The notes below the pieces were generated by a model that saw only the letters and a list, made by a program, of their open reading frames with translations, did no database searches and was not told where the DNA came from. A stretch of 33,074 bases of DNA, taken from IMG/VR virus record IMGVR_UViG_2737471830_000002. One strand, written 5' to 3'. The position numbers and the translations under genes are program-made. How positions within the stretch are numbered: position 1 is the first letter of the stretch; each line of letters starts with the position of its first letter. This document shows, piece by piece, positions 3,679 to 33,074 of the stretch. Source of the stretch: a virus (lineage: Duplodnaviria; Heunggongvirae; Uroviricota; Caudoviricetes).

Positions 3679-5072
3679 TAATCACCCCATAGTGAAGAAA
3701 AGTTACTGCTGGCTGCTGGCTGTGATACCTGTGCAGGTTGAGATTGCTGCCGCTGAGATTTACCAACATTAACGTTATATTGTTGGTTGTAATTGTTGGT
3801 GTATTCCTGAATCTCACGAATCGACTGCTGCATAGCCTCCGGGCTTGAATAGTCAACCTGCGGCATCCCCTGAAAATACATCTTCGCTTCTGCAACGGTG
3901 TTAATACCACTGGCCCCCATGTCCCTTGCTGCCGCCACACCCTGATTCTGCATTCTGCCCTGAATACGTTGTGCTGAGTTATATAACTGGCGCTGCTCTT
4001 TTCCTGTTAATCGGCTGCGAACATCAGCACCAATTGCCGGGTTACCTGCGCCGCCGGTCATTCCTGTCATGAAATCGAGAGCAGAAGCGTCTGCATTTGC
4101 GATCGCGTCGATATCCTTCTTCATGGCATAGTTTTGTGCTGATGCAGACGATGTTGCAGGCGCTGCGATTGAACTGGCAGGAACGCGAACCATATTCCCC
4201 TCGTTGTCGATGCCTTCGTAGAACGCATTTGCCCCAGCGCCGTGAAGTTTCCCGCCAACCGTTACAGTTCTGCCATCTGATAACTGAACTGTACGCTCAT
4301 CATTCCCAGCGGTTCCTCTTGTTGACGCTCGCTGCATTGCCAAATCCTGCCCGCGTCGCGCAGTAGAAGCAGATAAATCCTGACCGCGCATCGTGATGTT
4401 CTGACCTCGTGCTGTTAGCGCCTCTCCAGCCTGATTGCTGCGGATTGTCTCTGCAAGTTTTCCGCGATCAATCTCACGCCCAACGATTCTGTCTTGCGCC
4501 TGAAAATATTGTTCTGGACCAAGAGCAGCCATTCCAAGGTGATCAACAAACTCTGTGAAACCTTGTGGATTTTGCTGATACATTTTCGCCACATCCAGAG
4601 GGTCTACTCCGGCACGAGTAAGCTCAGATGAGTTGTTCTGCAACCATGACATCATGACTTCTAGAGATGAAGCTGCGAGTCTGACACTTGCTGCCAGTGT
4701 ACCGACAGTGGAACGCTGGTCTTCATCGACAAATTTCATGCCGTTTCTTACAGCGTCAAACTGCTCAGGATACTGTGATGCCAGTTTTCGCATTGCATCG
4801 CGGTCACCAGATGTATATGCATCAGCATAAGCCTGCTGAAACTCTTGCTGTCGCTTCTGCTGATCCATCTGCTTATACATATCCATGACAGATGAAATGC
4901 CCTGCAAAGCCTGCAAGCCAACGTTATTACGTCCTGAACGCTCCATCTCGTTATTCTGTCGAATGTATGCAAGCGTGGCGTCTGCATCACTTGCTCTTGG
5001 AGCGTTGGAGTTCATGCCGCCTAACCCGGCAAGAAGCGCGCCTGAATTACCAGCCTGTTGCCATGTAGCCAA
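3678..5072 (-). CDS. Ejection protein, P22 gp20 position
   Basis: 464-aa ORF; size and synteny; start overlaps the downstream gene stop. Confidence 0.6.
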
Positions 5073-5084
5073 GAGACACCTCCA

Positions 5085-5738
5085 TTAAAACAGTGAACCA
5101 AGAAGGCCGACGCCAGCACCAATTGCTGTACCCCAACCAGGCATGATTGCAGTACCTGCAGCTGCACCTGCCGCAGCTCCACCCAAGGCGCTCTGAAATC
5201 CTGATGGTTTATTCGCATTAGCCGCAGATGCTGCCGCCTGCTGTTGATACAATTGGCTGACGTTGTTGGCATAGTTCTGCCCGGCGTTTGCCTGACCTGT
5301 AAGAGCGCCAAGGCCGATATTTGCCAGATTGTTGTAGTTGTTCATCTGACCTGACAGCCAGTTTTGACCGAGTGTAGGTGCGATTGCTGCTAACTGGTTT
5401 CCTGTTGCTGTAGAGCCTAATCCACCCGTTGCCTCTGCTGCTGCCAGACTCTGGTAACGCGCCTGCCCTGCAAGGTCTTTGTACTGCTGGGAGTTGTAAT
5501 ACTGGTTAAGCGCCTGACCTTGCCCCTGAAGAGAGGAAAGATTCTGCAACTGTGATACGTACTGCTGAGCGAGTGGCGTGAACGGTGCAAGGTTTTGCAT
5601 GTTCGTCTGCCACATTTCACGCTGCAGTTCGATGCCCTTTTCAGTTGCGCGTGCCTGCTCTTTTGCTCCGCTATCACCGCCACCTTTGCAGTACACAGCT
5701 TTGCTGAGGTGCTTATTGGCAATCTGGAAAATTAACAT
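5085..5738 (-). CDS. Ejection protein, P22 gp7 position
   Basis: 217-aa Gly/Ala/Gln-rich ORF; synteny. Confidence 0.6.
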   Translation of the reverse strand: MLIFQIANKHLSKAVYCKGGGDSGAKEQARATEKGIELQREMWQTNMQNLAPFTPLAQQYVSQLQNLSSLQGQGQALNQYYNSQQYKDLAGQARYQSLAAAEATGGLGSTATGNQLAAIAPTLGQNWLSGQMNNYNNLANIGLGALTGQANAGQNYANNVSQLYQQQAAASAANANKPSGFQSALGGAAAGAAAGTAIMPGWGTAIGAGVGLLGSLF

Positions 5739-25119: not shown

Positions 25120-25836
25120 ATGGAAAATAAAAAATCACTGACGACAGAACAGCTCGAAGACGCTAAGCGGCTTAAGGCTTTGTATGAGTCAAAAAAGAAA
25201 GAATTGGGAATAACCCAATACTCAATTGCTGATGAACTGGGTATCACCCAAGGAGCGGTAGGGCATTATCTTAATGGCAGAAACGCGCTAAACGTTGAGG
25301 TTGCATCTGGTTTTGCACGATTGTTGCAAGTCTCAATTGCTGATTTTAGCCAGTCAATTGCTGCCAAGGTTGCAGAACAGGCAGAAAGCCTTAAGAGCGA
25401 TGCCAACGTAAGGTATGCAGGGGAATACAGAGCAGGAAAGAGGTATCCGGTGTTAAGCAGTATCCAGGCTGGCTCGTGGTGTGAAGCATGCGAACCATAC
25501 ACCATTAAAGACATAGATGTTTGGCTTGAGTCTGACGCGCATATTCAAGGTAATGCGTTCTGGCTTAAAGTGGAAGGTGATTCAATGACGGCACCGGTTG
25601 GGTTAAGCATTCCAGAGGGAACATTCGTTCTTTTCGATACCGGAAGGGAGGCGATCAACGGCAGCTTGGTCATAGCAAAACTTTCTGACTCTAACGAAGC
25701 AACATTCAAGAAGCTGATAATCGACGGCGGAAATAAATACCTCAAGGGACTTAATCCTGCATGGCCTCTCGTGCCAATCAATGGAAACTGCAAGATTATA
25801 GGCGTTGCAATTGAGACAAAACTAAGGCTGGTTTGA
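25120..25836 (+). CDS. cI: CI repressor (HTH N-domain plus S24 LexA-like autopeptidase C-domain)
   Basis: 238 aa; LTTEQLEDAKRLKALYESKKKELGITQ...AFWLKVEGDSMTAP...FKKLI parallels lambda CI including the cleavage-domain motifs. Confidence 0.9.
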   Translation: MENKKSLTTEQLEDAKRLKALYESKKKELGITQYSIADELGITQGAVGHYLNGRNALNVEVASGFARLLQVSIADFSQSIAAKVAEQAESLKSDANVRYAGEYRAGKRYPVLSSIQAGSWCEACEPYTIKDIDVWLESDAHIQGNAFWLKVEGDSMTAPVGLSIPEGTFVLFDTGREAINGSLVIAKLSDSNEATFKKLIIDGGNKYLKGLNPAWPLVPINGNCKIIGVAIETKLRLV

Positions 25837-25853
25837 TCACGCAAGGGGCGATT

Positions 25854-26222
25854 ATGGTTGGAACCGCTATAGCAAGCTTTTTTGGGATGTTGGCAATCTC
25901 GACAATTTACGGCTTAGCGCATGCTTTTATTGCGAAATCTCTATCAGAAAAAATAAGCCAGGCTTGGGCGCATAGATCAGCTCGTTTCATGATTCTGGTG
26001 ATCATAGCAATACAAGGGATATCTGCATTTATCCTCTATGGTTCAAGCTTATACCTGTTGTATCAAGGCGCGACATTTACGCCTTACACCAGTGATTACG
26101 GAACGCTATACGATGGTAGTGAAGACATCTCTATGGCTTGGATCGTCTTTGGTTTATCTATGGCCGTGTCTGTTGTAGCAGACATCATTAAGGTAATTCT
26201 CGTCTTAACCTTCGCTGACTAA
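25854..26222 (+). CDS. Small integral membrane protein co-transcribed with cI; candidate superinfection-exclusion/abortive-infection factor
   Basis: 122 aa from ATG at 25854 (AAGGGG RBS), 18 nt after the cI stop; three or four predicted TM segments; no similarity recognised. Confidence 0.55.
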   Translation: MVGTAIASFFGMLAISTIYGLAHAFIAKSLSEKISQAWAHRSARFMILVIIAIQGISAFILYGSSLYLLYQGATFTPYTSDYGTLYDGSEDISMAWIVFGLSMAVSVVADIIKVILVLTFAD

Positions 26223-26441: not shown

Positions 26442-26483
26442 GGCTCTTTAACATTGATGGGATTGTCCCGCCGAAATGCGGGA
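26442..26483 (+). promoter_or_regulatory. nutL (boxA and boxB)
   Basis: GGCTCTTTAACA (26442..26453) and TCCCGCCGAAATGCGGGA (26466..26483), identical boxB to nutR, upstream of N. Confidence 0.6.
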
Positions 26484-26590
26484 ACCAAAGAGTAGTTGGC
26501 TTTGGGGTGACGTGAAGTGCAGCTGCACGACGGCAACCGGAAGATAAGCACCCGGAGCGTCACCGCCAAAGTCAATCATCGGAGGTCAAC

Positions 26591-26896
26591 ATGACAGTAG
26601 TCATTACTTATCTGGCTGACGATAACGCCAGAAATCGCCGCAGAGCACGCAGACAGGCTCAACGTGAACAGGCAATGCAAGAACAGCGATTGGCACGAAA
26701 AATTGCGCTAAAGCTCTCTGGTTGCGTCAGAGCAGATAAAGCAGCATCACTCGGAAGCCTTCGCTGCAAGAAGGCAGAAGAAGTCGAGAGTAAACAGAAC
26801 CATATTTACTACCGCAAGCCACGCAGTGAAATGGGTGTGACCTGTTCAGGCCGCCAGAAGCAACGCGGAAAATCAATTCCAGCTTATTACGATTGA
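26591..26896 (+). CDS. N: N-type transcription antiterminator
   Basis: Arginine-rich motif NARNRRRARRQAQREQ at the N-terminus; C-terminus ...KPRSEMGVTCSGRQKQRGKSIP parallels lambda N; GGAGG RBS. Confidence 0.8.
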   Translation: MTVVITYLADDNARNRRRARRQAQREQAMQEQRLARKIALKLSGCVRADKAASLGSLRCKKAEEVESKQNHIYYRKPRSEMGVTCSGRQKQRGKSIPAYYD

Positions 26897-26904
26897 GGTG
26901 AGAT

Positions 26905-27156
26905 ATGGAATTTCATGAAAGTGCGATTTGTGATTTTCGCGCTAACGCAAATTCAGTAAAACCACAGCCAATTGCAGTTCTTTTTAAAACAATGGGTGCG
27001 TGGGCTGTTTTATGCTTCGCCGCTGACGACACTGACGCAAGAATGGCAATAGGCCAAGAGATGGAGATGGACCCGACAAACGATGAATTCATAATTTATG
27101 GCGCTCCATCTAATTACTTACTTGATACCTGCAACATTTACAACAAGGCTGCCTGA
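26905..27156 (+). CDS. Hypothetical protein (83 aa) at the ral-equivalent position
   Basis: ORF directly after N with GAGGTGAG RBS; followed by an intrinsic terminator. Confidence 0.45.
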   Translation: MEFHESAICDFRANANSVKPQPIAVLFKTMGAWAVLCFAADDTDARMAIGQEMEMDPTNDEFIIYGAPSNYLLDTCNIYNKAA

Positions 27157-27175
27157 TGGTGGCCTTTATTTTTGG
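27145..27175 (+). terminator. Intrinsic terminator (tL1-like)
   Basis: AAGGCUGCC-UGAU-GGUGGCCUU stem-loop followed by UAUUUUUGG. Confidence 0.5.
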
Positions 27176-27202
27176 CATAAACAACAGAATAAACACTGCA
27201 CT

Positions 27203-27230
27203 GTGTATTCATTCCAACGAGTGAATACAC
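27203..27230. repeat. Perfect 9-bp inverted repeat GTGTATTCA-N10-TGAATACAC
   Basis: Read directly; lies between two intrinsic terminators in an intergenic region. Confidence 0.6.
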
Positions 27231-27292
27231 GGAGCAATGTCGCTCGTAACTAAACAGGAGCCGACTTGTTCTGATTATTGGAAATCTTCTTT

Positions 27293-27320
27293 GCCCTCTA
27301 ATGTGAGGGCGATTTTTTAT
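27293..27320 (+). terminator. Intrinsic terminator
   Basis: GCCCTC-TAATGT-GAGGGC followed by GATTTTTTAT. Confidence 0.6.
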
Positions 27321-27338
27321 CTGTGAGGATATGAACAG

Positions 27339-27707
27339 ATGTCAAACATCAAAAAATACATCATTGATTACGACTGGAAAGCATCAATAGAAATTGAAAT
27401 CGACCATGACGTAATGACAGAGGAAAAACTTCACCAGATTAATAATTTCTGGTCAGACTCTGAATACCGACTCAATAAACACGGCTCTGTATTAAATGCT
27501 GTATTAATCATGCTGGCACAACATGCTCTGCTTATAACAATTTCAAAAGACCTAAATGCATATGGTGTTGTTTGTGAGTTCGACTGGGATGATGGAAATG
27601 GTCAGGAAGGATGGCCTCCAATGGATGGTAGTGAAGGAATAAGAATTACCGATATCGACACATCTGGAATATTTGATTCAGATGATATGACTATCAAAGC
27701 CGCCTGA
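27339..27707 (+). CDS. Hypothetical acidic protein (122 aa), candidate anti-defence factor
   Basis: ORF with GAGGA RBS, bracketed upstream by two terminators; Asp/Glu-rich (for example DWDDGNGQEGW, ITDIDTSGIFDSDDM); no recognised family. Confidence 0.55.
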   Translation: MSNIKKYIIDYDWKASIEIEIDHDVMTEEKLHQINNFWSDSEYRLNKHGSVLNAVLIMLAQHALLITISKDLNAYGVVCEFDWDDGNGQEGWPPMDGSEGIRITDIDTSGIFDSDDMTIKAA

Positions 27708-27782
27708 GCGCGGCTTTACCGCATACCAATAATGCTTCACGAGAGGCATTTTCATTATGCAATCAAATATAAGGAGTTACCC

Positions 27783-27917
27783 ATGATGCACTTTCAGCTC
27801 GCGGGTAGCGGCGTCATGTCCGCTTTCTACCCGCACGAATCTGAATTATCACGCCGAGTTAAACAATTAATCAGAGCAGCAAAGAAACAACTGGAGGCGT
27901 TATGCGCAATGAAATAG
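27783..27917 (+). CDS. cIII: CIII-like protein (FtsH inhibitor family)
   Basis: 44 aa from ATG at 27783 (AAGGAG RBS); HFQLAGSGVMSAFYPHESELSRRVKQLIRAAKK parallels the lambda CIII central helix. Confidence 0.5.
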   Translation: MMHFQLAGSGVMSAFYPHESELSRRVKQLIRAAKKQLEALCAMK

Positions 27918-28054
27918 CCATTAATCACCAGATGCTTCGTGCTGCACAGAACAAAGCAGTAATAGCCAGATTTATTGGTGATTCAAAAATGTGGCTTGAA
28001 GCAAATAAAGCGATGAAATCAGCTATCAACCTTCCGTGGTATCGCAGGAAATGA
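27902..28054 (+). CDS. kil: Kil-like small protein
   Basis: 50 aa; start overlaps the cIII-like stop, GGAGG RBS; VIARFIGDSKMWLEANKAMKSAI resembles the lambda Kil core as recalled. Confidence 0.4.
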   Translation: MRNEIAINHQMLRAAQNKAVIARFIGDSKMWLEANKAMKSAINLPWYRRK

Positions 28055-28129
28055 GTTTTACAGATAACTGGTCAGACGAAGAATTCATTCGTCAGATGAA
28101 AGATTTAATCGGTAACGAAGGAGATATTC

Positions 28130-28300
28130 ATGTCACTTGCAACCACAGTGAAGGAGAGCAAGTTACAGAGACGCATGTACACGCAGAAAGCTCTCTGGTA
28201 TCGCCATAATGGTGACCGCGAAGGAATGCGGGTATGCCTTAATTTGTCCCGAGTCGAAGTATTAAATCAGCGTTATTTCCTTGGGCCGTGTCCATTCTGA
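28130..28300 (+). CDS. Hypothetical small protein (56 aa); alternative overlapping ORF at 28051..28209
   Basis: ATG at 28130 with AAGGAG RBS, ends 8 nt before the annealase start; which of the two overlapping frames is expressed cannot be decided from sequence alone. Confidence 0.3.
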   Translation: MSLATTVKESKLQRRMYTQKALWYRHNGDREGMRVCLNLSRVEVLNQRYFLGPCPF

Positions 28301-28308
28301 GGTGAATT

Positions 28309-29016
28309 ATGGATTTGAACAAATTCGATGAGCCATTCAGCCCTGAAGATATCGAATGGCGAATACAGCAAAGCGGTAAAACACGCGATGGCAAGGTGTG
28401 GGCTATGGTGCTGGCTTATGTCACGAACCGGGCAATCATGAAACGCCTGGACGATGTTTGCGGCAAAGCAGGATGGCGCAATGAATACCGCGATATTCCC
28501 AACAACGGCGGAGTTGAATGCGGCATATCAATCAAGATTGATTCCGAATGGGTAACCAAATGGGATGCTGCTGAAAACACGCAGGTAGAAGCCGTCAAAG
28601 GTGGTCGTTCCGGTGCAATGAAGCGCGCTGCCGTTCAGTGGGGAATCGGTCGGTATCTGTATAACCTTGAGGAAGGTTTCGCACAAACATCTCTCGATAA
28701 AAAGCAGGGGTGGCACAGGGCAAAACTGAAGGATGGAACAGGATTTTACTGGCTCCCTCCATCGCTGCCGGGATGGGCAATCCCAGCATCAGATAACAAA
28801 CCATCACCAGAAAATACCAACCAGAAATCTCCATCGGTTGACTGCGAACAAATCCTGAAAGACTTCAGCGATTATGCGTCAACAGAAACTGACAAGAAAA
28901 AACTCATCGAGCGTTATCAGCGTGACTGGCAATTAATGGCTGGCAACGAGGAGGCGCAGGCTAAATGCGTTCAGGTAATGAACATCAGAGTTAACGAACT
29001 AAAACAGGCGGCATAA
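28309..29016 (+). CDS. Rad52-family single-strand annealing protein (Sak-like recombinase)
   Basis: 235 aa; GGRSGAMKRAAVQWGIGRYLYNL resembles the Rad52 N-domain signature; immediately precedes ssb. Confidence 0.6.
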   Translation: MDLNKFDEPFSPEDIEWRIQQSGKTRDGKVWAMVLAYVTNRAIMKRLDDVCGKAGWRNEYRDIPNNGGVECGISIKIDSEWVTKWDAAENTQVEAVKGGRSGAMKRAAVQWGIGRYLYNLEEGFAQTSLDKKQGWHRAKLKDGTGFYWLPPSLPGWAIPASDNKPSPENTNQKSPSVDCEQILKDFSDYASTETDKKKLIERYQRDWQLMAGNEEAQAKCVQVMNIRVNELKQAA

Positions 29017-29523
29017 ATGGCAAGCAGAGGCGTAAATAAGGTGATTATCCTTGGTCGGGTAGGACAAGACCCGGAAGTTCGATACTCACCATCAGGAACA
29101 GCGTTCGCTAACCTGACAATAGCCACGTCAGAACAATGGCGAGATAAAAATACTGGCGAGCAAAAGGAATTGACTGAATGGCATCGTGTTGCTGTATCCG
29201 GGAAACTGGCTGAGGTCGTGGGGCAGTATGTGAAAAAAGGTGATCAGATTTATTTCGAGGGAATGCTGAGAACCAGAAAGTGGAAAGACCAGTCAGGGCA
29301 AGACCGTTACACAACCGAGGTTCATGTCGGAATTAATGGCGTGATGCAAATGCTTGGCGGCATTGGCGACAGCAAACAACAAGCAGCCAGCAAGCAATCA
29401 CAGAAGCCACAGCAGCAATCATCACCAGCACAACACAACGAACCTCCGATGGATTTTGACGACGATATACCCTTTGCACCAGTAACTCTCCCCTTCCCTC
29501 GTCACGCTATTCACGCAATTTAA
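29017..29523 (+). CDS. ssb: Single-stranded DNA-binding protein with C-terminal extension
   Basis: OB-fold N-terminus [44 protein letters not shown]...; acidic tip [11 protein letters not shown] is followed by [15 protein letters not shown] before the stop. Confidence 0.9.
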
Positions 29524-29536
29524 TCAGGAGAAAATC

Positions 29537-29833
29537 ATGCCAGCGCCTCTGTATGGTGCGGATGACCCGCGCCGCTGTTCCGGCAATTCCATATCGGAGG
29601 TGCTGGATAAATTCAGAAAAAACTACGACCTGATAATGTCGCTACCGCAGGAAACGAAAGAGGAAAAGGAATTTCGCCATTGTATATGGCTTGCAGAGAA
29701 AGAAGAACGCGAGCGAATTTACCAGACATCAATCCGACCATTCCGCAAAGCCACATATACCCACTTCCCTGAATATATCGACCCGCGCCTGCGTAATTAC
29801 CGCTCACGCTATGGCGCTATCAGTAATGACTGA
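29537..29833 (+). CDS. Hypothetical protein (98 aa)
   Basis: ORF with GGAG RBS following ssb. Confidence 0.45.
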
Positions 29834-29843
29834 GGAATTTACC

Positions 29844-30008
29844 ATGAGAGGACTTGCATACAATCCCGGCATTCTTCCGGCAGAAATGATTATTCGCCAA
29901 CGCGTAAAGCCAATGCCATCGAGAGAGGAATTGCTTAAGAGAAATAGTTTCGGTTCTGTTAATGACAACAAATATCTGAATGCGATGTGGCGGAGTGGGA
30001 AGAAATGA
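29844..30008 (+). CDS. Hypothetical small protein (54 aa)
   Basis: ATG at 29844 with GAGGAA RBS; stop overlaps the next gene start (ATGA). Confidence 0.4.
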
Positions 30009-30775
30009 AACAAATGTCACTAATTGAGATGGATGGATTTCTGAAAGGTAAATGCATCCCACGAGATTTAAAGGTTAACGAAACAAACGCTGAATATCTT
30101 GTCCGTAAGTTCGGTGAACTTGAATCAAAACTCAACGAGCAGCGTGAGTATTACGAGGGCGTTATCTCGGATGGGAGTAAGCGTATTGCTGAACTGGAGA
30201 AAAGCGAAGAGCAACTCATCAACGAGCGTGACCATGCTGAGTATGCTTTAGCTGATATGTATTTTGCAGCAACCGGGAACAGGCCGGAATGGAGTAACTG
30301 TTTCAGTTTTTCAGATGCAGTAGATGCCGTAGTTGACAGAATTGCTGATTTAGAAGCTAAACAGCCATCGCCAGTAGTACCGGAAGAAAAACCAATGCCT
30401 AATCCTCTTAGCATGTACGCGGTTGATGCTGTTGCCGCTATTGCAGAGGTGAGAGGCTGGAATGCCTGCCGCGCCGCCATGCTTCATGGTGCCGAACCTG
30501 TAAGCCAAACTTACAAGTTGAACGAGCTATCTGGCAACTCTCCGGTAACTCCGGATAGTTGGATAAGCTGTAGTGAGCGAATGCCGGACGATAAACAGTA
30601 TGTTTGGTTTTTTGGGGAGTCTCGCGGATTTGCTGGACGCGATACCTTCGAAGGGTATTACGATTGGTCGAGAAACAAATGGTGGGCAGTAACTGACATT
30701 GGAGAAGAACCTGCATCAAAAGTAACCCACTGGATGCCGCTGCCAGAACCGCCGTGGGAGGTTAACCGTGGCTAA
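30005..30775 (+). CDS. DUF551-like prophage protein
   Basis: C-terminal region [18 protein letters not shown]...WWAV...[10 protein letters not shown] resembles the DUF551 signature common in enterobacterial prophages. Confidence 0.55.
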
Positions 30776-30875
30776 CCTGCAACTTGCCGTCAAAGGTGAA
30801 TAACAATCCTCGCACTCGCGGGGATTTCTTTTATCTGAACTCGTTACGGCGGGTTTTGTTTTATGGAGATGATAA

Positions 30876-31043
30876 ATGCACTTCCGAGTCACAGGTGAAT
30901 GGAATGGAGAACCATTCAACAGAGTTATCGAAGCAGAGAACATCAACGACTGCTATGACCACTGGATGATATGGGCGCAGATAGCACATGCAGACGTAAC
31001 CAATATTCGAATTGAAGAACTGAAAGAACACCAAGCCGCCTGA
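30876..31043 (+). CDS. Hypothetical small protein (55 aa)
   Basis: ATG at 30876 after GGAGATGATAA; a terminator hairpin overlaps its stop. Confidence 0.35.
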   Translation: MHFRVTGEWNGEPFNRVIEAENINDCYDHWMIWAQIAHADVTNIRIEELKEHQAA

Positions 31044-31056
31044 TGGCGGTTTTTTA
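31033..31056 (+). terminator. Intrinsic terminator
   Basis: AAGCCGCC-TGAT-GGCGGTTT followed by TTTTTATT. Confidence 0.5.
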
Positions 31057-31065
31057 TTGCCTGAT

Positions 31066-31082
31066 TTGCAGGTTCGATTCCC
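31066..31082 (+). other. tRNA T-arm-like fragment (TTGCAGGTTCGATTCC) upstream of the excisionase gene
   Basis: Matches the T-loop consensus GGTTCGATTCC and, as recalled, the argW T-arm, but is not part of a foldable full tRNA. Confidence 0.4.
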
Positions 31083-31100
31083 TATTCGGAGATAGCACTC

Positions 31101-31301
31101 ATGCAACACGAACTACAGCCTGATTCACTGGTTGATTTGAAATTCATCATGGCTGATACTGGCTTTGGTAAAACCTTCATCTACGACCGGATTAAGTCCG
31201 GCGACCTGCCAAAAGCCAAAGTTATCCACGGGCGAGCAAGATGGTTATATCGTGACCATTGTGAATTCAAAAATAAGCTCTTAAGCCGCGCTAATGGGTA
31301 A
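31101..31301 (+). CDS. torI: Excisionase / recombination directionality factor, AlpA/TorI family
   Basis: 66 aa, MQHELQPDSLVDLKFIMADTGFGKTFIYDRIKSGDLPKAKVIHGRARWLYRDHCEFKNKLL; winged-helix AlpA-type; matches E. coli TorI as recalled. Confidence 0.75.
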   Translation: MQHELQPDSLVDLKFIMADTGFGKTFIYDRIKSGDLPKAKVIHGRARWLYRDHCEFKNKLLSRANG

Positions 31302-31374
31302 AATAGCGGGTAAAATATTTTTCACATCTAAAAAATACCATTCCAATCAATCCCCTGCCGCTTCAAGTAGATGT

Positions 31375-31389
31375 CTGCAGGGGACACCA
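31375..31389 (+). other. Attachment-site core: tRNA 3'-end fragment CTGCAGGGGACACCA (likely argW-derived)
   Basis: Acceptor-stem 3' strand plus discriminator plus CCA with no upstream tRNA body; phage genes to the left, host-like sequence to the right. Confidence 0.55.
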
Positions 31390-31549
31390 GATACCCTTCA
31401 AACGAAATCTACCTTCACTCCGTAAAAGATGGGTTTGGCAGCATGCCCTATATCTACTCATTTTTACTGCAACAGGTTGAAATCTCAGCACTGTCAGAAA
31501 GCGTTGATGACTAAACAGCCCTGGGCCGGGCGATGTAACCATCACACAG

Positions 31550-31748
31550 AATCCTGATAGCGAAATATGGCGTGACTCGATACTTCACTCCGCAATGCAT
31601 TCCTTGATGAATTCGCATGCCCGTGATACACGGGACAGGTCGCTGAATGACGACAATGTCCTGGAAATCAGCGAACCGCGTATCCGGAGTACATTTGAGC
31701 GACTGTACCAGAACATGAATGAGGCGTTTGGATTAGGTGATTATTAGC
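31550..31748 (+). other. Open frame without convincing start; possible gene remnant in the host flank
   Basis: About 66 sense codons ending ...RLYQNMNEAFGLGDY then stop; not identified. Confidence 0.2.
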
Positions 31749-31826
31749 AGGGCTAAGCATTTTAGTATTATTATTTTCCGGTTGAGGGATATGGAGATAT
31801 CGACAACAACCGGAAAAAGTTTACGT

Positions 31827-33074
31827 CTATATTGCTGAAGGTACAGGCGTTTCCATCACTATTTGCTCGCGTTTTTTACTCAGGAAGAAAATGCCAAATA
31901 GCAACATCATGCAGACAATACCCGAAATTGCGAAGAAAACTGTCTGGTAGCCTGCGTGGTCAAAGAGTATCCCAGTCGGCGTTGAAAGCAGCACAATCCC
32001 AAGCGAACTGGCAATTTGAAAACCAATCAGAAAGATCGTCGACGACAGGCGCTTATCAAAGTTTGCCACGCTGTATTTGAAGACGGATATGACACAAAGT
32101 GGAACCTCAATGGCATGTAACAGCTTCACTAATGAAATAATCCAGGGGTTAACGAACAGCGCGCAGGAAAGGATACGCAACGCCATAATCACAACACCGA
32201 TAAGTAATGCATTTTTTGGCCCTACCCGATTCACAAAGAACGGAATAATCGCCATGCACAGCGCTTCGAGTACCACCTGGAATGAGTTGAGATAACCATA
32301 CAGGCGCGTTCCTACATCGTGTGATTCGAATAAACCTGCATAAAAGACAGGAAAAAGTTGTTGATCAAAAATGTTATAGAAAGACCACGTCCCAACAATA
32401 AATATGACGAAAACCCAGAAGTTTCGATCCTTGAAAACTGCGATAAAATCCTCTTTTTTTACCCCTCCCGCATCCGCCGCTACGCACTGGTGATCCTTAT
32501 CTTTAAAACACATGTTGATCATCATAAATACAGCGCCAAATAGCGAGACCAACCAGAAGTTGATATGGGGACTGATACTAAAAAATATGCCGGCAAAGAA
32601 CGCGCCAATAGCATAGCCAAAAGATCCCCAGGCGCGCGCTGTTCCATATTCGAAATGAAAATTTCGCGCCATTTTTTCGGTGAAGCTGTCAAGCAAACCG
32701 CATCCCGCCAGATACCCCAGGCCAAAAAAGAGCGCCCCCAGAATTAGACCTACAGAAAAATTGCTTTGCAGTAACGGTTCATAAACGTAAATCATAAACG
32801 GTCCGGTCAAGACCAGGATAAAACTCATACACCAGATGAGCGGTTTCTTCAGACCGAGTTTATCCTGAACGATGCCGTAGAACATCATAAATAGAATGCT
32901 GGTAAACTGGTTGACCGAATAAAGTGTACCTAATTCCGTCCCTGTCAACCCTAGATGTCCTTTCAGCCAAATAGCGTATAACGACCACCACAGCGACCAG
33001 GAAATAAAAAAGAGAAATGAGTAACTGGATGCAAAACGATAGTACGCATTTCTGAATGGAATATTCAGTGCCAT
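31827..33074 (-). CDS. cscB: LacY-family oligosaccharide:H+ symporter, probably sucrose permease CscB
   Basis: 415 aa, 12-TM MFS; aligns along its length with LacY; the start codon is the last three bases of the window. Confidence 0.8.
   Translation of the reverse strand: MALNIPFRNAYYRFASSYSFLFFISWSLWWSLYAIWLKGHLGLTGTELGTLYSVNQFTSILFMMFYGIVQDKLGLKKPLIWCMSFILVLTGPFMIYVYEPLLQSNFSVGLILGALFFGLGYLAGCGLLDSFTEKMARNFHFEYGTARAWGSFGYAIGAFFAGIFFSISPHINFWLVSLFGAVFMMINMCFKDKDHQCVAADAGGVKKEDFIAVFKDRNFWVFVIFIVGTWSFYNIFDQQLFPVFYAGLFESHDVGTRLYGYLNSFQVVLEALCMAIIPFFVNRVGPKNALLIGVVIMALRILSCALFVNPWIISLVKLLHAIEVPLCVISVFKYSVANFDKRLSSTIFLIGFQIASSLGIVLLSTPTGILFDHAGYQTVFFAISGIVCMMLLFGIFFLSKKREQIVMETPVPSAI

Follow-up and report, generated by a model that had tools for sequence, protein, structure and literature searches.

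Four genes of described phage families at the distal early-left end of a P22/HK620/Sf6-like prophage

Identity of the four genes

Within a 33,074-nucleotide stretch of Caudoviricetes DNA (IMG/VR record IMGVR_UViG_2737471830_000002; hereafter the window), we analysed a block of four open reading frames (ORFs) at positions 29537-31043. Our reading of the block, to which we assign a probability of about 0.82, is that it consists of four genes of catalogued families lying promoter-distally in the early-left (pL) operon of a prophage that is P22/HK620/Sf6-like and integrated at argW, and that these genes are expressed as delayed-early genes. The four genes are:

29537-29833, + strand: ORF1, 98 amino acids (aa); abc2, anti-RecBCD protein 2 (Pfam PF11043, E 1e-62; phrog_656; PDB 8b1t/8b1u, E 2.4e-57)
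29844-30008, + strand: ORF2, 54 aa; DUF2737 gene of the HK620 hkaI / P22 orf56 family (Pfam PF10930, E 4.2e-30; phrog_1117, E 2e-38)
30005-30775, + strand: ORF3, 256 aa; chimeric Ead/Ea22-type protein, pI 4.7
30876-31043, + strand: ORF4, 55 aa; orf55 (lambdap35) (tblastn, 100% to lambda 29121-29285; phrog_676, E 6.6e-40)

These coordinates agree exactly with those of a preliminary description of the same DNA, which had held that the four ORFs have no assignable function. The latter statement does not stand: ORF1 is Abc2 (89 of 98 residues identical), ORF4 is lambda Orf55 (100%) and ORF3 is of the Ead/Ea22 type. Agreement with a well-characterised phage gene extends to function for ORF1 and is in name only for ORF3 and ORF4; ORF3 belongs to the Ea22 family, which has a published phenotype, and ORF4 is a known lambda gene without known function. 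All four genes belong to families that are described, routinely annotated and already known.

As judged from sequence, the Pfam and PHROG profile matches (Anti-RecBCD_p2, E 1e-62; DUF2737, 4e-30; DUF551, 2.5e-15; phrog_676, 6.6e-40) lie far beyond chance. The ORFs are tightly spaced, three of the four (ORF1, ORF2 and ORF4) are preceded by a clear Shine-Dalgarno sequence, and the ATG of ORF3 overlaps the stop codon of ORF2 as ATGA; ORF3 appears to be translationally coupled to ORF2. A lookup of the exact ORF3 protein brought up at least 24 public contigs, and in these the four genes are called by independent gene callers at identical spacing. Given that ORF2 and ORF4 have just 54 and 55 codons, one or more of the short ORFs might be chance reading frames, and in comparisons with close relatives, which carry few substitutions, synonymous and non-synonymous counts are about equal (the substitutions are too few to be decisive). 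This explanation is nevertheless scarcely credible: ORF2 and ORF4 match family profiles at E values of 4e-30 and 7e-40, the frame and the core residues are kept in homologues at 36-52% identity, ORF2 has a homologue in P22 at 74% identity, the AlphaFold2 (AF2) model of ORF4 is confident, and all four differences between ORF4 and its lambda counterpart are synonymous.

ORF1 is the last gene of a recombination module

ORF1 matches PF11043 (Anti-RecBCD_p2) with 208.8 bits against a cut-off of 25, its residues 1-98 aligning with profile positions 1-97 of 97, and it is 91% identical (89/98) over the full length to P22 Abc2 in PDB entries 8B1T and 8B1U (8b1t_A). The phage protein Abc2 attaches to RecC and re-programmes RecBCD, a nuclease of the host, and Pro68 of Abc2 is acted on by the host protein PpiB (PMC9836394). 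Two positions differ within residues 1-75, which span the RecC-binding helices (residues 3-66), and Pro68, the residue that is modelled within the active site of PpiB, is present in ORF1. The nine substitutions or indels that separate the P22 protein from ORF1 cluster in the last 25 residues, a stretch that is disordered in the P22 structure. On these alignments, ORF1 is assigned as Abc2. By close homology, it would stop RecBCD from responding to Chi and pass the resected DNA to the phage annealing protein.

The two genes upstream of ORF1 are:

28309-29016, + strand: Rad52/Rad22-type annealing protein (Pfam, E 5e-26)
29017-29523, + strand: single-stranded DNA-binding protein, SSB (Pfam, E 1.6e-36)

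In a survey of lambdoid phages, the annealing protein, SSB and the anti-RecBCD protein were found to make up one contiguous 'Rec module' (PMC12315714). Because these three proteins form such a contiguous module here, ORF1 is the last gene of a Rad52-SSB-Abc2 recombination module and not part of a block of uncharacterised cargo. P22 Abc2 occupies the same place, at the end of the recombination module beside an annealing protein and SSB, but its annealing partner is Erf, whereas the annealing protein in the window scores as Rad52/Rad22-type in Pfam. Of the genes in the block, abc2 is the best understood, with a structure solved on its target.

ORF2 is a DUF2737 protein

ORF2 matches PF10930 (DUF2737) with 103.8 bits against a cut-off of 25. 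Its very basic 54-aa product (pI 10.7) has homologues in HK620 (hkaI, 96% identity), P22 (74% in the orf56 region), ST104 and epsilon34. Searches of PDB, PADLOC and NCBIfam gave no structure, defence or NCBIfam match for ORF2, and the sole paper in the literature that mentions DUF2737 assigns no function to the family. That ORF2 and Orf55 are small binders is a guess.

ORF3 is a chimeric Ead/Ea22-type protein

From the N-terminus, ORF3 consists of an Oad2-type segment, a coiled coil, a proline-rich linker and a C-terminal DUF551 domain. The exact protein is already present in NCBI as 'DUF551 domain-containing protein', and, among deposited phage genomes, the closest full-length relative is only 64% identical. 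A blastn map against related loci divides the ORF3 region into sharp blocks of homology. Three named segments of the protein are:

30005-30133, + strand: residues 1-43, shared with HK446 gp27 (Oad2) (BLASTP, 41/43 identical, 95%, E 3e-27)
30122-30208, + strand: residues 40-68, lambda Ea22 coiled-coil segment (BLASTP, 25/29 identical, 86%; DNA 92% identical to lambda ea22)
30557-30754, + strand: residues 185-250, DUF551 domain, all-beta (Pfam PF04448, E 2.5e-15)

The DNA at 29843-30132 is common to phage N7 and to E. coli locus L004. Farther along the protein, residues 59-253 match, at 64% identity, an Ead/Ea22-like DUF551 protein of 390 aa that is very common (980 contigs); relative to this common form, ORF3 is 134 residues shorter and has a 47-residue deletion before DUF551. 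In the AF2 model, a long helix at residues 28-90, which includes the lambda-like segment, is followed by helices at 102-118 and 134-160, with low confidence at 97-106 and 119-182, and residues 185-250 form a four-stranded beta domain with pLDDT values of 70-88.

The presence of a DUF551-like protein in the block, as given in the preliminary description, is borne out by a PF04448 score of 57.5 bits against a cut-off of 22 for residues 185-250. In an alignment of DUF551 sequences, two invariant motifs (WISCSERMP and a second motif) flank a variable centre, the invariant residues being W, C, S, M, P ... V, T, W, P, L, P, P. Besides occurring on its own in proteins of 80-140 aa, the domain is found in fusions with other domains. 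Neither its sequence profile nor its fold reveals a relative in PDB; sequence searches of PDB with ORF2, ORF3, ORF4 and a 17-sequence DUF551 profile gave nothing below E 0.1, and NCBIfam gave no match for any of the five proteins searched.

The Pfam Ead_Ea22 profile (PF13935) scores 21.0 bits on ORF3, below the gathering threshold of 27, and the match is limited to residues 33-65, aligned with the last 27 profile positions. Because of this sub-threshold score, we describe ORF3 as Ea22-type in architecture and as a partial member of the Ead/Ea22 family: it shows the three-part Ea22 architecture of a short N-segment, a long coiled coil and a separable C-terminal domain. Ea22 of lambda and of Shiga toxin (Stx) phages is tetrameric and pro-lysogenic, and Stx-phage Ea22 'V2' variants carry DUF551 as their C-terminal domain (PMC10834534; Goddard et al. 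2024). ORF3 shares with the 'V2' variants the plan of N-segment, coiled coil and DUF551 but differs from them in its N-terminal 43 residues, which come from the HK97 gp37 / HK446 gp27 lineage.

The coiled coil probably oligomerises the protein, and DUF551 is probably a portable domain that docks on a host or phage partner; by analogy with lambda and Stx-phage Ea22, ORF3 may influence the choice between lysis and lysogeny, or the stress and defence responses of the host. A more specific proposal is that ORF3 acts as lambda and Stx-phage Ea22 do, i.e., as a tetrameric pro-lysogenic factor that damps prophage induction. The Ea22-type architecture with its shared coiled-coil segment, the DUF551 domain of the 'V2' variants and the 64% identity of residues 59-253 to the Ead/Ea22-like protein of the 980 contigs all point in this direction. 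However, the phenotype comes from other Ea22 variants, the C-terminal domain of lambda Ea22 bears no relation to DUF551 and has no activity by itself, and ORF3 departs from the common form in its N-terminus and by the 47-residue deletion. We therefore consider an Ea22-like role possible, with the odds leaning against it.

Likeness to Oad2 and a possible counter-defence role

According to a July 2026 preprint, Oad2, the name given to HK446 gp27, binds the P2 OLD abortive-infection nuclease directly and inhibits it, OLD being activated by RecBCD inhibition and Gp33 being a trigger of it; relatives of Oad2 can be fused to EaD/Ea22 proteins, and a homologue from HK75 that is 54% identical over the full length is without anti-OLD activity (10.64898/2026.07.10.737580). 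The HK446 gene order is abc2, gp29, DUF2737, gp27, xis, and the Oad2 gene thus occupies the same genomic slot as ORF3: it overlaps the stop codon of the DUF2737 gene and lies upstream of xis. The resemblance between the proteins is confined to residues 1-43 (95%); residues 44-175 of Oad2 (132 of 175) are without counterpart in ORF3.

The window also holds a homologue of Gp33, 87% identical to HK446/HK75 Gp33, at 28051-28209 (+), whose ATG at 28051 overlaps the kil stop codon as ATGA. This frame overlaps, out of frame, another ORF at 28130-28300 (+) that resembles Sf6p29 / HK97 gp42, and both frames are intact. PGAP and the Logan gene caller annotate 28130-28300 and not the Gp33 frame. We considered 28130-28300 as the Gp33 homologue and rejected it, since it does not match HK446 Gp33; the true homologue is the overlapping frame at 28051-28209.

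It could be argued from this setting that ORF3, perhaps together with ORF2 and Orf55, encodes anti-immunity proteins that sit beside RecBCD manipulators which trigger guard systems, the coiled coil and DUF551 of ORF3 binding and silencing a sensor of the host, for instance OLD, a retron or Gabija. Such a role would be compatible with the assignment of the block to catalogued delayed-early genes, but we think it doubtful for several reasons: (i) Only 43 of the 175 Oad2 residues are shared and the rest are unrelated. (ii) The HK75 homologue fails to inhibit OLD even at 54% full-length identity. (iii) The shared N-terminus coincides with a recombination junction and may simply mark it. (iv) The source is a single 2026 preprint. 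Anti-OLD activity of ORF3 cannot be inferred from these alignments with Oad2. Inside 29537-31043, PADLOC returned no credible defence match, only a coiled-coil artefact at 0.0059.

A broader form of the idea would be a modular counter-defence family in which a conserved N-segment and coiled coil carry exchangeable C-terminal 'warheads', which may include the Oad2 body, the lambda Ea22 C-terminal domain and DUF551; separately from this family, the orf55 cassette between its terminators, of which at least 80% is found in 40% of complete E. coli genomes, might specify a small acidic protein that inhibits a host protein. We regard this reading as unlikely. If true, such genes of the ORF3 family beside Abc2 and Gp33 would neutralise immune sensors that guard RecBCD, and DUF551 would be a warhead. 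With a bona fide anti-OLD protein reported in the exact slot of ORF3, the possible counter-defence role of the ORF3 family is the one thread worth following, prompted by the Oad2 preprint.

ORF4 is lambda Orf55, carried in a conserved cassette

The ORF4 protein is 100% identical to lambda Orf55, the four nucleotide differences all being synonymous; in lambda, the gene (lambdap35) sits between ea8.5 and xis. The AF2 model has a beta-beta-alpha-beta fold with a pLDDT of 93 and reproduces the published model (PMC8614690). The family is very small, comprising 51 representatives at 50% clustering among 1.84 billion. The gene lies in a discrete unit with the following parts:

30800-31063, + strand: orf55 cassette of 264 bp, consisting of two hairpins, a Shine-Dalgarno sequence, orf55 and a terminator (alignment with lambda, HK140, N7 and phiv205-1; blastn map)
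30805-30836, + strand: terminator-like hairpin 1 (30805-30826), with a 9-bp stem and a tetraloop, followed by TTTCTTTTAT
30837-30866, + strand: terminator-like hairpin 2 (30837-30856), with an 8-bp stem, followed by TTTTGTTTTAT
31033-31058, + strand: intrinsic terminator overlapping the orf55 stop codon, with an 8-bp GC-rich stem (31033-31052) and the stop codon in the loop, followed by the T-run TTTTTTATT

The cassette is about 95-97% conserved in lambda and HK140 and has sharp homology breaks at both ends, with boundaries that are visible also against N7 and phiv205-1. At a coverage of at least 80% of a 267-bp query (30797-31063), it occurs in 2171 of 5426 complete E. coli genomes, at up to 8 places per genome, and it precedes three types of xis, namely lambda Xis, AlpA-like and TorI-like. 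The ends of the cassette (30797-30878 and 30996-31063) are retained in Sf6 and certain E. coli genomes in which the ORF body is replaced or absent, the Sf6 counterparts lying at 4580-4696 and 4997-5394 of locus L002. The cassette ends act as boundary sequences for recombination would, a pattern typical of what is annotated as 'boundary sequences' in Sf6.

The likeliest role for Orf55 is to bind or inhibit a host protein. With a net charge of -6 it is acidic, as many small inhibitors from phages are, though this gives no more than a hint; a CRISPRi essentiality screen in lambda left out orf55, which is without a PAM site. Donaldson (2021) proposed from modelling that Orf55 inhibits host RNA polymerase in the manner of T7 Gp2. 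Arg45 is the proposed counterpart of the critical Gp2 arginine that contacts the beta-prime jaw, but in seven distant homologues this residue is V, E, E, N, H, D and D. A Gp2-like role is not well supported by this comparison, and we consider it improbable.

Position within the early-left operon

The prophage in the window is P22/HK620/Sf6-like (Lederbergvirus-type), and the nearest phage records are N7, phiv205-1, HK022, Sf6, Kapi1 and CUS-3. Upstream of the block, genes for DUF2528, cIII and kil lie on the + strand together with these elements:

25120-25836, + strand: cI-type repressor with helix-turn-helix and S24 peptidase domains (domain matches)
26443-26484, 5' of the N-like gene: nutL-like element, a boxA-like GGCTCTTTAACA followed by a boxB-like hairpin, TCCCGC-CGAAAT-GCGGGA
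26591-26896, + strand: N-like gene with an Arg-rich N-terminus

The N-like protein matches Pfam N_peptide weakly (17.7 bits against a cut-off of 27.9). The genes for Cro and for a lambda-type CII lie on the strand opposite to the block. With cI, the N-like gene, cIII, kil and the recombination genes all upstream on its own strand, and with Cro and CII encoded by the other strand, the block forms the end of the pL operon that is farthest from the promoter. The preliminary description had placed it in the distal pL region, and this + strand context, with its nutL-like site, confirms the placement.

Directly 3' of cI, at 25833-26222 (+), there is a 129-aa ORF with hydrophobic stretches and no Pfam match. 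It is placed like the exclusion genes of the rex/sieB type, which lysogens express.

A rho-independent pattern of GC-rich hairpin and U-tract is found at three sites on the + strand around orf55, and the minus strand has no U-tract. The third of these, at the end of orf55, is the intrinsic terminator that had been noted just before the excisionase gene; the corresponding site in phage HK140 is annotated as a rho-independent terminator. The two upstream hairpins (30805-30826 and 30837-30856) had been missed. The 81-nt region that contains them folds at -24.3 kcal/mol (z -3.4), and across the cassette alignment two variable stem positions of hairpin 2 keep their pairing (U-G to C-G and U-G to U-A). 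All three hairpins are present in lambda. A search of Rfam over 27000-33074 at E <= 1 gave no match.

We considered whether the orf55-flanking hairpins correspond to lambda tL3 and rejected this, as lambda has a separate hairpin just after exo. This strong terminator-like hairpin is directly 3' of exo, inside orf60a (499-521 of lambda locus L006, approximately lambda 31265-31287), and is presumably the classical tL3; the orf55-flanking hairpins of lambda are distinct from it, at 2430-2677 of the same locus. A literature search for tL3 coordinates found nothing usable.

From lambda and P22 biology, the expected behaviour of the block is as follows. In a lysogen, cI would repress pL and ORF1-ORF4 would be silent. 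On infection or induction, N-modified RNA polymerase would read through the three terminators, and the genes would be expressed as delayed-early genes. For unmodified polymerase, the three terminators would insulate xis from stray upstream transcription.

The preliminary description had proposed instead that the region carries lysogenic-conversion or anti-host cargo. The anti-host part holds for ORF1 (Abc2) and is plausible for ORF3 and ORF4; the conversion part is not supported. For the orf55 cassette or the whole block to be autonomous, i.e., expressed from the repressed prophage so as to change the host phenotype, would fit with three features: orf55 is bracketed by terminator-like hairpins, it travels from one unrelated phage to another as a discrete unit of 264 bp, and it adjoins att. 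Nevertheless, no sigma-70-like promoter was found on the + strand from 28084 to 31744, which includes the 100-nt gap 5' of orf55, and the block lies on the pL strand. The upstream hairpins are co-directional with orf55 and would stop incoming transcripts rather than start one, lambda orf55 itself sits in the pL operon, and the conversion gene of Sf6 (oac) is beyond int and not at this place. In lambda lysogens, the genes with known expression are cI, rexAB, lom and bor. We consider a moron or lysogenic-conversion role very improbable and retain the assignment to the delayed-early end of the pL operon.

The right end of the prophage

Downstream of the block, the prophage ends with:

31101-31301, + strand: xis, TorI/HK620 hkaC-type excisionase (annotations in N7, Sf6, L004 and L005; phrog_66)
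31375-31389, no strand assigned: attR core CTGCAGGGGACACCA, the 3' end of a tRNA-Arg argW-type att site, identical to the Sf6 attP core and to phiv205-1 attR

The xis gene has no non-synonymous differences from that of L004, annotated as 'response regulator inhibitor TorI' (PGAP, WP_001163428.1). It also matches the PADLOC model mad1 (7.6e-14), probably due to the shared Xis/AlpA fold. In Lederbergvirus-type phages, attP lies between xis and int; it follows that the phage genes of the prophage end with xis at attR. Likeness to Sf6 and phiv205-1 ends immediately after the att core, where the prophage ends, in agreement with the earlier placement of the block near the attachment site. Beyond attR, 50 codons remain of a DUF4942 gene (31595-31747); they are followed by cscB (31827-33074, minus strand), in the same order as in E. 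coli loci L004 and L005, where the remnant is followed by cscB-cscK-cscA. The prophage is integrated at the argW tRNA site beside the csc sucrose genes. No tRNA was found in a scan of the window; the intact argW must be located past the opposite end of the prophage.

The argW site seems to hold debris of an element integrated earlier (31390-31830). In two loci from other assemblies, L010 and L011, an HNH_3 endonuclease gene (155 aa, 1549-2016) lies between the Rad52-type gene and ssb. The window is without this gene at 29016/29017, and the L010 and L011 prophage ends are otherwise identical; the right chromosomal flank of L010 differs and is not csc.

Immediately past the orf55 terminator, at 31057-31069, there is a TTGC-N5-TTGC repeat; the xis start codon follows 32 nt later. 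In the cassette alignment, lambda has TTGC-N6-TTGC at the corresponding place, which we take to be the cII-binding site of pI, and Sf6 annotates a 'possible pI' there. We make no claim of a cII-dependent pI promoter after the terminator in the window, where the N5 spacing is one base short of the canonical N6.

Comparison with known systems

The block belongs to the common mosaic exo-xis or 'ea' region of lambdoid prophages, which is annotated alike in hundreds of phage and E. coli records. The value of the present analysis is corrective: the block is to be labelled abc2, DUF2737, Ead/Ea22-DUF551 and lambda orf55, and not as four uncharacterised ORFs. Three of the families, DUF2737, DUF551 and Orf55, are very widespread without known function, and one of them is found in phage lambda itself.

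At the level of single domains, YfdS of the E. coli K-12 element CPS-53 and other stand-alone DUF551 proteins have the same C-terminal beta domain and motifs as ORF3. They differ in that the domain is nearly alone in a protein of 80-140 aa, or is fused to a dATP/dGTP pyrophosphohydrolase, whereas in ORF3 it is fused to a coiled coil.

At the level of the region, the closest counterparts are the lambda exo-xis region (ea22, ea8.5, orf55) and the 'ea'/hka region of P22 and HK620, which occupy the same place, from the recombination genes to xis, on the same strand and in the same operon, and show the same mosaic behaviour. Lambda orf55 encodes an identical protein, and its DNA is about 97% identical, including the three flanking hairpins. 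The region in the window is nonetheless shorter, with 3 genes compared with 6-10 in Sf6, N7 and E. coli prophages; it is without orf60a, orf61, orf63, orf73 and ea8.5 of lambda, and it leads into an xis of the TorI/HK620 type rather than lambda Xis.

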